DNA of 64,000 nucleotides from Myxococcales bacterium (GTDB lineage: Bacteria > Myxococcota_A > Bradymonadia > UBA7976 > UBA1532), in contig JACKDN010000004.1 of the NCBI GenBank assembly GCA_020633465.1, positions 307,828 to 371,827 on the forward strand, written 5' to 3'. The position numbers and the translations under genes are program-made. The notes beneath the pieces are model-generated. The model was not told the origin of the DNA and did not search any database. It saw only the letters and a program-made list of their open reading frames with translations. How positions within the stretch are numbered: position 1 is the stretch's first letter; every line of letters starts with the position of its first letter. Positions 50,701-56,446 of the stretch are shown here, in pieces.

Positions 50701-52656
50701 ATGGCACGCGCCCGGCACGAGCTGACGGTCCGCCTCGCGCGCGACGGGGACGCGCTGCACGCCGTCTATCACCGCCCCACCTACGGCCCCGTCGCCGAGC
50801 GCCGCGCGCCCTGGACCCTGGGCGCGGACGTCCTGCGCGTGGCCAGCGCGGCGGGCCTCGACGCCCTGGGCGCGCTGCTCGACCGGGGCCACGCCGCCGA
50901 GCTGGTCGAGCACCTGACCGAGGGCGATCTCAGCCGGGTGGGCGACCTGCTGTTCGACGCGCTGCTGGGGGATCGCGAGGACTGGGAGCCCGTGCTGCGC
51001 GGCGTGTTCGAGCTGGGCCCCGCCGGCCGCCCCAACCCCATCTACGGCCCGGTGCGCCTGCGCGTGTGCGCCGACGACGGCCTGCTGGGCGGCCTGCCCT
51101 GGCGGCTGACCACGTGGCGCGGCCAGCTCTTGTGCGATCACGGCTGGACCTTCGAGGCCACCGCGCTGCCCGAGCCCTCGCGCCACGTCGACCTGCCGAC
51201 GCCGGCCAAGGTGCTGGTGCTGGCGCCGGCCTGCGCCGGCGCCGAGGATCTCGAGACCGAGGCCCACCTGGCCGCGCTGCGCGAGGCGCTGCTGCGGGTG
51301 TCGCCGCACTACACCAGCGCCGCGTTCCTGCGCGTGGAGCAGACGCGCGACGGCCTGCTGCGCGGCCTGCGCGGCATGCACCCGCACGTGCTGTACTACT
51401 ACGGCCACGCCGACGTGCGCGGCGAGCAGGCCTGCCTGCTGCTGGGCGGCCCGGACGATCGCCCCGATCCGCTGCGCATGGGCGATCTGCGCCGCATCCT
51501 GGCCGCGAACCCGCCGCTGGTCGCCTGCCTCAACGGGTGCAAGACGGCGGCGAGCGGCTGGCACGCCGCGGGCCACCAGCTCGGCACCGACGTGCCGCTG
51601 GTGCTGGCCAACCGGACGACCGCGTGGTCGGCGCACGCCGGCACCGCCGCCATCCAGTGGCTGGCGCGCACGCTGGGCGAGGGCGAGGATCCGGTCGTCG
51701 CGCTGTGCCGCCTGCCCGCCAACGCCTGCACGCGCGGCTTCCAGTGGGCGACGATGGTGGCGCACACGCACTACCGAAGCTGGTCGGCGGGGCGCGATCC
51801 CACCGCGGTGCGGCCGCCGGTGGTCGGCCTGCGGCTCGACCGCGATCAGCAGCGCGCGCTGCTGTTCAAGCACGTCAGCGACCTGGTGCAGAGCCGGGCG
51901 CGCCGCGTCGAGGCCGCCGTCGCGTTCGCCGCGCCGGGCAACCACGTCGAGCGCTTCTACGCCCAGCTGATCGACTACCTCGAGATCGTCGCGACGCACC
52001 TGGCGCACGTGAAGCGTGTGGTGGTGCGGTTCCCCGAGGATCGCGACGATCTCGAGCGGCGGCTCGAGGACGAGCTGCGCGTGCAGCTCGACGTGCAGCC
52101 GCACGAGACGCTCGAGCAGGCGCTGCGCTTCCACGCGCCGCGCCCCGATCCCGGCGGCGCGGCGCCCCTGCTGTGGCTCGACTGGGGCACCTTCGGCGGC
52201 GACTTCCAGCCCTCGCTGACGCCCGAGCAGCTCACCGCCTGGGTGGGCTTCTGCGCCGACACGCTGACCCGGCACTGCCCGGCCGAGGTGCGCGTGGTGT
52301 CGTTCCTGGCGATGGAGGTCGACGCCCGCCACCACGGCCGGCTGACCCGCGCCATGGACGCCCTGCGCGAGCAGTTCTTCCGCGAGGCCTTCCGCTGCAG
52401 CCTGATCCCGGCGCTGCCCGATCTGAAGCTGATCGATCTGATGGAGTTCCTCGGCGACCCCACCAACACCACCTGCCCCGCGGCCATCGCGGGCGAGGTG
52501 GCGCGGCTGATGTTCGAAGAGGCGCGCGGCCACTACGCCGAGACCATCGCGCTCGTCGAGGAGGCCGAGGAGACGACGTGGACGCGCCTGCTGGGCCGCC
52601 TGCGTTCGCTGCACCAGCCCACGCCGCCCCCCGCGGACGGCGACGAGCCCTTCTGA
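50701..52656 (+). CDS. CHAT-domain (caspase-like His-Cys peptidase) protein with a ~300-aa C-terminal domain of unknown function, possibly a VMAP-type effector
   Basis: The putative catalytic His is in [22 protein letters not shown]. The putative catalytic Cys is in [17 protein letters not shown]. Their ~55-aa spacing and the VLVLAPA strand context fit the CHAT/caspase fold. The gene is followed 13 nt later by a MoxR ATPase. Confidence 0.55.
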
Positions 52657-52669
52657 CGCCGAGGCACCG

Positions 52670-53596
52670 ATGAACGCACCGAAGCCCGCGCCCTTCGACC
52701 TGCTCGACCCCAGCGAGCGCCGGCCGGATCGCCGCGCGCTGCTCGACGCGCAGGTGCCGCCGCCGACGCTGGGTGATCACACCGCGGCCGCCGCGCAGTT
52801 CCAGCCCGGCGAGGACCTGGTCGCGGCGATCAACGTCGCCCTGGCGGTGGGCGCGCCGCTGCTGCTGACCGGCGAGCCGGGCACGGGCAAGACGCAGGTG
52901 GCGCATTACGTGGCGTGGTACTTCGAGGTGCCGCTGTTCTCGCTGCACGTGCGCTCGTCGACCACGGCCAGCGATCTGCTGTACCGCTTCGACACCGTCG
53001 CCTACTTCCACGCGGCCTACGCCTCGGGCGGCGACGCGAAGCTGAGCAAGGCCGACTTCGTCGACCGCGGGCCCCTGTGGCACGCCTTCGAGGCGCCGCA
53101 CCGGCCGGTGGTGCTGGTCGACGAGATCGACAAGGCGCCGCGCGACTTCCCCAATGATCTCCTGCATGTACTGGATCAGCACCGCTTCGTCGTGGCCGAG
53201 ACCGGCGCCGAGGTGCGGCTGAAGGCGGACGCGCCGCCGCCCCTGGTGGTGATCACCAGCAACAGCGAGCGGCGGCTGCCCGAGCCCTTCCTGCGGCGCT
53301 GCATCTTCCACCACATCGAGTTCACGCCGGCCCTGCTCGAGAAGGCCGTCGCCGCGCGCGCCGCCGACTTCCCGCACCTGGATCCGGCCGCGCGGCAGGT
53401 GGCGATGGAGCGCTTCCTCGAGCTGCGCGGCCGCCGCCTGCGCAAGAAGCCCGCGACCGCCGAGCTGTTGGTGTGGCTGACCATCCTGTCCGCCAAGGGC
53501 GGCGTCGACGCCGCGACCCTGCGCGACGCGCCCCTGCGCGCCCTGCCGGCGCTGTCGGCGCTGGTGAAGGATCGCGACGACCTGGCGGATCTGTAG
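52670..53596 (+). CDS. MoxR-family AAA+ ATPase
   Basis: Walker A is [15 protein letters not shown] and Walker B is [14 protein letters not shown] sensor region is [18 protein letters not shown]. It is a MoxR/RavA-like single AAA+ protein of 308 aa. Confidence 0.8.
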
Positions 53597-55936: not shown

Positions 55937-56029
55937 CGCTTGACGCCCCGCGCCCACCCGCGCTGAGATACGCCATCCCTCCTGGGTGAGGGCACGCGGC
56001 CGGGCGTCCGCGGCGGGAGATTCGAGACG

Positions 56030-56446
56030 ATGCTGCAGCTGACCATCCGACGGGTCGAAGCCGACACGGTCACCGACCTGGGCGACGACCCCCTCACCGC
56101 GGTCCACACCCGCAGCGCCGGGCTGCCGGCCCGCGTGCGCCTGCCCTCGGGCCGCGACGTGCTCGCCGACCTCACCAACCTCGCCGTCCGCGACCTGGGC
56201 GGCCTCGTCGAGGTCACCCAGCCCCCCGACCTCGACGGCCTGCTGATCGTCATCGAGGCCGCCACCGTCGCCGCCGCCCGCGCCGACGTCGACGCCATGG
56301 CCCACGACGACACCCTGCGCGACGCCCTCGCCGCCCTGCCCAAGGATCGCCGCCGCGAGCTCGACGACCTGCTCGCCGGCCTCCGCCGCGTCGTCCCGCA
56401 AGCAGCGGCCAACCGACAGATGGTGGCGTTGGTCTACGAGGGGTAG
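56030..56446 (+). CDS. Hypothetical protein (138 aa), possibly the fourth gene of the CHAT-MoxR-vWA cluster
   Basis: The ATG has GGGAG upstream, about 90 nt after the vWA-like gene. No family is recognised. Confidence 0.4.
   Translation: MLQLTIRRVEADTVTDLGDDPLTAVHTRSAGLPARVRLPSGRDVLADLTNLAVRDLGGLVEVTQPPDLDGLLIVIEAATVAAARADVDAMAHDDTLRDALAALPKDRRRELDDLLAGLRRVVPQAAANRQMVALVYEG

Follow-up and report, generated by a model that had tools for sequence, protein, structure and literature searches.

The DNA analyzed here is a stretch of 64,000 nucleotides (nt) from a Myxococcales bacterium (GenBank assembly GCA_020633465.1, contig JACKDN010000004.1, positions 307,828 to 371,827 of the forward strand), hereafter called the window. 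It contains four consecutive genes, designated A to D (Table 1). Gene A encodes a CHAT-fold protease fused to an inactive AAA+ module, gene B a MoxR-clade ATPase and gene C a membrane-spanning partner protein, while gene D is an orphan open reading frame (ORF). We find that A, B and C probably constitute an iSTAND-type MoxR ternary conflict (immune-like) system that is anchored in the inner membrane and follows the general logic of that class. Our confidence in any specific step of the mechanism is much lower.

The window has a GC content of approximately 75%, and raw ORF lists are thus full of artefacts. Genes were instead picked by third-position GC content (GC3), and values of 0.95–0.97 mark the four genes, all of which are read co-directionally from the forward strand. 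The gaps between them measure 13 nt (A–B), 195 nt (B–C) and 93 nt (C–D). An earlier note on this DNA had described four co-directional genes with gaps of 13–200 nt and had quoted the motifs GHAD and NGCKTA in A and WIDEAVD and AILTDG in C, all of which we recover. The ORF of gene A opens upstream of its ATG at a TTG codon at 50686, and residue numbers given here refer to the 656-amino-acid (aa) translation from that codon. Comparisons of dN/dS (omega) were made between the window and two relatives, L009 and L010, at dS of about 0.2, and all four genes are under purifying selection.

The B–C gap (53597–53791) is 195 nt in the window versus 136 nt in L009, and in the distant loci L001, L002, L004 and L006 the two genes overlap or lie no more than 12 nt apart. 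The extra DNA in the window is approximately 80% GC with no obvious coding signal. A scan for promoters and terminators found nothing, as expected at 75% GC, and is hence uninformative.

Products of the A-B-C operon

Protein A is a CHAT-fold cysteine protease with the caspase-hemoglobinase fold and an intact His241/Cys285 dyad, and its activity is predicted. The histidine lies in YYYGHAD (nt 51406–51408) and the cysteine in LNGCKTA (nt 51538–51540). In an alignment of 30 close homologues the dyad is conserved except in four proteins. Three of these, which are the three homologues carrying an N-terminal TIR domain, have lost both residues, and in P0015 the histidine is replaced by serine. When a profile of the A family was compared with PDB sequences it matched SAVED-CHAT (8tl0, E 0.0026), with the GH of the family aligned over GHG and its NxC over NAC. 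The Pfam CHAT model is reached by five of the 30 close homologues (best E 3.1e-7), which suggests that the A family is a divergent CHAT branch mostly missed by that model. The dN/dS for A is 0.08–0.09. The A-like protein P0015 (L003 1315–6068) has an additional 322-aa C-terminal region matching AAA_14. The next gene is a calcineurin-like Metallophos gene, and there is no B or C gene nearby. This arrangement represents a different wiring of the A-type module.

The C-terminal part of A is a catalytically dead ORC/Cdc6/STAND-like AAA+ module fused to the CHAT region. Residues 408–642 follow the order b1-a1-b2-a2-b3-a3-b4-a4-b5 (b, strand; a, helix) and end in a helical bundle, as expected of AAA+/STAND modules. 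In the family, VAYGxxGNxVE occupies the Walker A position, the lysine and threonine being absent family-wide, and a Walker-B-like motif is retained (VLWLDWG in the family, LLWLDWG in the window protein). No Pfam family covers this region in the window protein, in the 30 close homologues or in 60 longer members of the family, and a profile of the module had no meaningful match among PDB sequences. Kaur et al. (2021) have suggested that the dead AAA+ module may bind nucleic acids. The earlier note had placed the locus with VMAP-type systems. However, the Pfam models VMAP-C and VMAP-M do not match the window protein at E ≤ 1, the 30 homologues at E ≤ 0.01 or the 60 distant members at E ≤ 0.001, and an ORC/Cdc6-like AAA+ fold stands where a VMAP domain would be expected.

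With a cut-off of E ≤ 0.001, a profile of the C-terminal module alone retrieves 536 representative clusters, of which 223 remain at E ≤ 1e-30. Only 17 of 104 full-length representatives keep both the histidine and the cysteine of the dyad. These are nearly all of about 630–670 aa with a small N-terminal extension or none, the exceptions being the two longer proteins P0073 and P0101, and the dyad is mostly lost from members of 750–830 aa. Among 60 longer members, 46 contain TIR_2 and two contain EAD2, an effector-associated domain defined for MoxR-type conflict systems; SIR2_2, Peptidase_C14, PNP_UDP_1 and Schlafen/AlbA_2 occur in one member each. The CHAT-fold region is thus a constant scaffold whose catalytic site tends to be given up once an N-terminal output domain has been gained. 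Loss of the protease dyad together with gain of TIR, SIR2 or EAD2 looks like output swapping. The loss of the dyad in the N-terminally extended members supports the protease as the probable output of the window version.

Gene B encodes an intact MoxR-clade AAA+ ATPase, as had been proposed for this 308-aa protein. Both its Walker A (GEPGTGKT) and Walker B (VLVDEID) motifs are intact, and dN/dS is 0.05–0.08. In Pfam it matches AAA_5 (E 7e-15) and, below threshold, bpMoxR (E 4.8e-4, 19.7 bits against a cut-off of 27). The nearest PDB sequences are midasin (5.7e-9), NorQ (2.9e-4) and CbbQ (5e-4), all of the MoxR/midasin group. Among NCBIfam models, B matches MadB_ATPase (E 4.4e-19, 68.8 bits against a cut-off of 475), and C matches VWA_dom_MadC over its N-domain only (model positions 12–81, E 3.2e-8, 32.9 bits against a cut-off of 600). 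Because these scores fall far under the curated cut-offs, B and C are related to MadB and MadC but are not members of those families. Our literature search did not establish what the 'Mad' system is. MadB and MadC may be the closest curated MoxR-vWA pair.

The AlphaFold model of C has a mean pLDDT of 73.9 and begins with a four-helix domain. The VWA_dom_MadC match spans residues 25–95 (window 53864–54076), and the same model is matched by 16 of 30 C homologues. This N-domain can be linked indirectly to the CoxE-type four-helix domain, through the MadC model rather than through CoxE itself. C also contains three hydrophobic helices, at approximately aa 124–144, 231–251 and 692–713, as the earlier note had recognized. 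Two of them pass a Kyte-Doolittle scan, and the glycine-rich middle helix is supported by a helix in the AlphaFold model. The charge distribution suggests a topology with the N-terminus inside, the loop between the first two transmembrane (TM) helices outside, the core inside and the C-terminus outside. The TM1–TM2 loop consists of about 85 residues, is rich in proline and alanine and is disordered (pLDDT < 50). No part of the operon evolves faster than the TM1-loop-TM2 segment, which has an identity of 69–72%, an omega of 0.33–0.51 and a dS that is also raised, at 0.5–0.6, while the adjacent cytoplasmic core is highly constrained. Omega is 0.08–0.16 for the core and helical parts and 0.23–0.32 for C as a whole.

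The core of C had been described as a vWA domain with a degenerate metal-ion-dependent adhesion site (MIDAS), and the evidence on this point is divided. The vWA signature consists of a six-strand Rossmannoid fold with aspartates ending strands 1 and 4 (PMC7159879). The strand order of the core is vWA-like, and two acidic positions correspond to that signature: the invariant Asp341 (in WIDEAVD, after VWLWI) and the near-invariant LTDG motif (Thr405 and Asp406, in AILTDG). The MIDAS serines are missing. No VWA family was detected by hidden Markov model (HMM) in 30 C homologues or in 20 core-only sequences at E ≤ 10. Neither the comparison of a core profile with PDB sequences nor a fold search returned a vWA match, the only matches of a whole-C family profile to PDB sequences were FGS proteins, and a word-indexed profile search with the core yielded only seven further fragments and no annotated vWA relatives. 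It is plausible that the core is a vWA domain, and we lean somewhat towards that assignment.

Conservation of the operon and variation in its FGS domain

We scanned one genome per species with a profile of the C core and identified 56 related loci, 43 of which had enough upstream DNA to be informative. The helical linker/TM3 region of C was found by tblastn in 50 of the 56. An A-type module and a B gene lie directly upstream of C, on the same strand, in 34 of the 43 informative loci; in three only B is present and in six C is alone. The same A-B-C order was found in L001, L002, L004, L006 and L009 by look-ups of identical proteins, two of these having a TIR-bearing variant of A or an FGS-bearing C. 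The loci occur in Myxococcota (Nannocystaceae, Haliangium, Polyangia), Acidobacteriota (Holophagales, Thermoanaerobaculia), Entotheonella, Magnetococcales, Phycisphaeraceae, and Gamma- and Betaproteobacteria (Competibacter, Accumulibacter, Methylumidiphilus). The three genes are a conserved operon across phyla. Chance adjacency, which the earlier note had said a lack of synteny in relatives would indicate, is ruled out by this count. In other loci the neighbours of the triad include resolvases and HEPN, PIN and TerB-like genes.

Some loci depart from this arrangement. In Haliangium (L035 3636–11730, and also L033) there is a B-C pair without an A-like module, and the C-like ORF, of 1242 aa, has an unrecognized C-terminal region in place of FGS. 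We considered whether an alternative third component lies upstream of this pair; the gene there encodes an unrelated CsgG/TPR lipoprotein. In L017, L028 and L030 an FGS-bearing C-like gene lacks A and B upstream; some 8 kb downstream, and on that same strand, there is a pair of A-module and B genes, a layout that may reflect tandem or rearranged systems.

We identified 32 C homologues, and in 25 of the 30 aligned a C-terminal FGE-sulfatase/FGS extension of 220–480 aa follows the last TM helix. Of 42 loci informative at the nucleotide level, 36 encode FGS immediately downstream and on the strand of C. The predicted topology would place the FGS domain, where present, outside the cytoplasm. The FGS domains of the C family are closest to TvpA of Treponema denticola (E 2e-52), a lectin-fold variable protein diversified by a retroelement. 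No diversity-generating retroelement was seen among the genes called in five inspected loci, where no dedicated search for one was made.

The window protein and four other aligned homologues stop at the last TM helix, and FGS is encoded nowhere in the whole window. The fusion of C to an extracytoplasmic FGS domain that is usual in this family, and that the window copy lacks, had been overlooked in the earlier note. FGS-less C proteins are also found in other lineages at 46–63% identity (P0033, P0034, P0037 and L011). Three loci have a stand-alone FGE-sulfatase/FGS gene that is convergent with the triad and follows shortly after it: L001 (16059–16616), L002 (13445–14440) and L006 (6543–7520), all on the minus strand. 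The C gene of L006 is itself without FGS, and these stand-alone genes may be spare or exchangeable sensor domains.

The genes that surround the operon are neighbours rather than components. Gene D, which had been taken to close the cluster, is a real gene but is a lineage-restricted orphan and not a conserved component of the system. It shares 96% aa identity with its counterpart in L009, the closest relative, over the 73 codons available (dN/dS 0.10). It is absent from L001–L008, from L010–L065 and from a metagenome scan, and it has no match in Pfam, NCBIfam or PADLOC. Gene D may be an accessory particular to this lineage, such as a substrate or inhibitor, or it may have no connection with the system.

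The remaining neighbours are listed in Table 1. The kptA, LysR and vapBC genes and the AT-rich patch that the earlier note had drawn upon are present, but these genes are not parts of the system. A segment at 49064–50380, comprising kptA and roughly two-thirds of the LysR gene from its start, is missing from L009 (L009 6740–6890). The flanks of this indel are approximately 88–90% identical to L009 at the nucleotide level, and the 3' end of the LysR gene is left there as a 95-aa ORF. The indel lies at the 5' border of the operon and could affect the operon promoter. The lower-GC patch at 56500–57500 (0.65–0.67 versus about 0.75) holds vapBC, which looks like an independent module. A PIN gene flanks the triad in L006 as well. 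The giant upstream protein is probably of surface or adhesin type.

Table 1. Positions of the operon, its domains and the neighbouring genes within the window (aa, amino acids; GC3, third-position GC content; TM, transmembrane helix)
Feature	Position	Strand	Remarks
Gene A, CHAT-fold cysteine protease with inactive AAA+/STAND-like module	50701..52656	+	651 aa from ATG
CHAT/caspase-fold region of A, ~aa 120-375	51043..51810	+	catalytic His241, Cys285
Inactive AAA+/STAND-like (iSTAND-like) module of A, ~aa 383-650	51832..52635	+	degenerate Walker A
Gene B, MoxR-clade AAA+ ATPase	52670..53596	+	308 aa
Gene C, three-TM partner protein ending at last TM helix, no FGS	53792..55936	+	714 aa; GC3 0.97
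Four-helix N-domain of C, CoxE/MadC-type, aa 13-98	53828..54085	+	helices 20-28, 35-46, 53-64, 69-98
TM1 (aa 124-144), predicted periplasmic low-complexity loop and TM2 (aa 231-251) of C	54161..54544	+	hydropathy scan and model helices
Cytoplasmic alpha/beta core of C, aa 291-475	54662..55216	+	vWA-like strand order; omega 0.08-0.09
Helical linker (aa 476-690) and TM3 (aa 692-713) of C	55217..55930	+	all-helical in model
Gene D, orphan ORF	56030..56446	+	138 aa; GC3 0.96
Giant protein with repeated CarboxypepD_reg, Big and PEGA-like domains	40324..48273	+	2649 aa; collinear with L009
Crp-like regulator	48275..49045	-	
KptA/Tpt1	49065..49679	-	
LysR	49785..50669	+	
vapB, MazE/AbrB-type	56514..56747		
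vapC, PIN	56763..57170		
MFS transporter	57313..58734		
XRE-type helix-turn-helix gene, solitary, after the MFS transporter	58801..59088		

Proposed function and alternative explanations

We place the locus in the iSTAND class because the C-terminal domain of A is an inactive ORC/Cdc6/STAND-like AAA+ module. The swapping of N-terminal domains in the A family supports membership in the world of effector-shuffling immune systems, and a role in conflict, as suggested by the earlier note, is plausible. The system belongs to a class that has been predicted computationally (Kaur et al. 2020) and is not of an unknown kind.

Several observations weigh against this assignment. It is based on descriptions of fold and architecture rather than on alignment to published iSTAND sequences. 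The window protein A has no match to Pfam CHAT (PF12770) at E ≤ 1, and at that threshold Pfam recognizes B alone, with nothing at all for A, C or D. The earlier note had named failure of HMMs to detect CHAT in A or a vWA fold in C as grounds for rejecting its proposal, and at the Pfam level both are indeed undetected; CHAT is recovered by structural and family-level evidence, whereas vWA is not. A search of PADLOC-DB v2 gave no match for A, C or D and only short P-loop-level matches for B (IetA, mad8, TRIP13, RtcR). The literature searched yielded no experimental work on iSTAND-type systems. The related loci are nearly all from metagenome-assembled genomes, and therefore no phenotype or host biology is attached to them. 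Finally, the window copy of C is without FGS, so the sensory input of this copy is not given by that domain.

A possible mechanism for the iSTAND-type system is as follows. C would act as a membrane-spanning sensor and scaffold whose external part, the FGS domain in most relatives, perceives a threat signal at the level of the envelope. Since C in the window lineage has no FGS, the input there must differ, and it might be the variable periplasmic TM1–TM2 loop, the membrane segments or a perturbation of the membrane, or a ligand that the dead AAA+ module binds in the cytoplasm. The core of C, probably a divergent vWA-like domain with two acidic positions, could hold a peptide of its partner, and a hexamer of B might remodel the C-A complex with ATP and so serve as a threshold switch. 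The dead AAA+ module of A would mediate docking or oligomerization, and release or assembly of A would turn on the CHAT protease. The protease would then cleave partner proteins or other targets in the cell, and the cell would stop growing, die or mount a downstream response. Where the protease site is dead, as in sister lineages, the N-terminal TIR domain (NAD-consuming or signalling) appears to become the output.

An outcome that is not lethal deserves consideration, in which C senses a cue from the envelope or the exterior, B relays it and A, through its CHAT protease, alters gene expression by cleaving a regulator such as an anti-sigma or transcription factor. The membrane topology of C fits outside-in signalling, and Esr, an experimentally studied MoxR-vWA sensing pathway, drives phospho-signalling and a transcriptional response (10.64898/2026.09.08.750141). 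However, no regulator gene is conserved beside the triad in L001, L002, L004, L006 or L009, the LysR gene is missing in a close relative, and TIR, SIR2 or PNP domains in place of the protease are more typical of immune outputs that deplete NAD or nucleotides. We consider such signalling unlikely, and since it overlaps with the iSTAND-type conflict system it differs from it mainly in outcome. A housekeeping role is quite improbable. The triad would then be a MoxR chaperone module that matures a membrane or envelope complex, with A as maturation protease, in the manner of the classic assembly chaperones CbbQ/CbbO, NorQ/NorD and CoxD/CoxE (PMC7159879, section 8), and the nearest solved relatives of B are indeed of this kind. 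The phyletic distribution is nevertheless patchy, loci lie beside resolvase, HEPN, PIN and TerB genes, and no client gene is conserved in the neighbourhood. Nor do the exchange of N-terminal domains with TIR, SIR2, EAD2 and Schlafen in the A family and the relationship of FGS to the retroelement-diversified TvpA suit a chaperone.

The absence of FGS from the window raises the question of whether this copy is a decaying remnant whose function disappeared with its sensor. C ends at the last TM helix while 25 of 30 relatives continue into FGS, and the B–C gap of 195 nt is unusually long. Yet the catalytic dyad and Walker motifs are intact, dN/dS against the two relatives is 0.05–0.09 for A and B and 0.08–0.16 for the core and helical parts of C at dS of about 0.2, and FGS-less C proteins persist in the four instances at 46–63% identity noted above. 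Pseudogenization is rejected on the dN/dS values, and a remnant is very improbable. Because of the low dN/dS and the persistence of FGS-less C proteins in other lineages, the window system is maintained and not decaying. Still less do we favour the idea that the triad is a MoxR-vWA ternary system of VMAP type carrying a CHAT effector, which is extremely improbable. The two types have a common grammar, an effector-bearing third component with MoxR and a partner (PMC7159879), but VMAP-C and VMAP-M are undetected, the C-terminus of A has the ORC/Cdc6-like AAA+ fold, and the CoxE-type N-domain, TM segments and FGS are stated hallmarks of iSTAND systems.

According to a prediction made in 2020, bacteria that live socially harbour a large reservoir of immune-like and apoptosis-like machinery in the form of MoxR ternary systems. 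Within this reservoir the points of interest at the present locus are the pseudo-CHAT scaffold with its hand-over from protease to TIR, the undetectable partner core and the natural FGS-less variant. The operon offers a compact three-gene test case with a protease dyad, Walker motifs, a partner that occurs naturally with and without FGS, and protease-dead TIR sisters. It could reveal the way in which a MoxR ATPase controls a caspase-like protease, and whether signals are sensed outside the cytoplasm. There is also a lesson for annotation. Standard HMMs detect neither CHAT nor the partner core, so pipelines that use Pfam, PADLOC and NCBIfam do not see systems of this sort.

Comparison with known systems

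Four classes of MoxR-vWA ternary system were defined by Kaur, Burroughs, Iyer and Aravind in 2020 (eLife, PMC7159879). In the iSTAND class the third component is an inactive STAND NTPase with N-terminal caspase-like, trypsin, TIR, DRHyd or effector-associated domains (section 20 of that paper). The N-domain of the vWA partner is a four-helix domain of CoxE type, TM segments are present in approximately 28% of systems, FGS is the commonest C-terminal domain of the partner (approximately 22%), and the class is concentrated in Gram-negatives. The variants iSTAND2 and TERNS3 have been described subsequently (PMC8195603). The operon described here resembles this class in its three-gene grammar, its MoxR ATPase, the inactive STAND-type module and variable N-terminal domains (TIR, EAD2 and others) of its third component, and its Gram-negative hosts of Proteobacteria/Myxococcota type. 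The partner likewise has a CoxE-type N-domain, TM segments and, in most relatives, a C-terminal FGS after a helical linker. It differs in that the partner vWA is undetected by HMM or fold search and lacks the MIDAS serines. In addition, the CHAT fold is a constant part of the third component, becoming a pseudo-protease in TIR-bearing members, and is not a simple add-on. The window copy also differs from FGS-bearing iSTAND systems in having no FGS, a feature that is frequent in the class but not obligatory. It is doubtful that these differences amount to a distinct and undescribed class of MoxR-centred transmembrane immune sensor, one defined by a constant CHAT or pseudo-CHAT with dead AAA+, a non-vWA MoxR-coupled relay core, TM1–TM2 loop sensing in the FGS-less lineage and hand-over from protease to TIR.

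The CHAT proteases SAVED-CHAT (8tl0) and the Csx29/TPR-CHAT of Craspase (7y9x, 7y83) are associated with CRISPR, and there is no CRISPR association here. SAVED-CHAT is activated by cyclic oligoadenylate binding to SAVED, and Csx29 by binding of target RNA to Cas7-11. In contrast, the regulator of the CHAT domain in this operon is predicted to be the fused dead AAA+ module together with a MoxR ATPase and a membrane partner. Separase (5u1t, 9hvy), the cohesin protease of eukaryotes, has a large helical N-terminus, is regulated by securin and has no operonic ATPase.

The VMAP/lectin 'antigen sensor' loci (PMC7159879, PMC10907252) also combine MoxR, a partner with an FGS or C-type-lectin domain and a third protein bearing a protease or TIR domain. 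Dore et al. (2024, PMC10907252) described retroelement-diversified lectin sensor loci, including variants with MoxR-linked lectin-domain proteins in which an unrecognized N-terminal extension replaces vWA and TM segments put the lectin domain in the periplasm. They argue that the lectin-domain protein is a sensor that signals via MoxR to the third component's N-terminal effector. Unlike the VMAP-type loci, the A family has no VMAP-C domain, and the window is without any lectin domain.

The sole experimentally supported MoxR-vWA conflict-type pathway that we found is Esr of Schaalia odontolytica (bioRxiv 10.64898/2026.09.08.750141). Esr employs a beta-propeller filament as its sensor and a kinase/phosphatase/FHA relay to Esx secretion, and it has no CHAT, iSTAND or FGS component. 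The likeness to the operon described here lies in the overall route: in Esr a sensor at the cell surface acts by way of MoxR and vWA proteins to elicit a response inside the cell.

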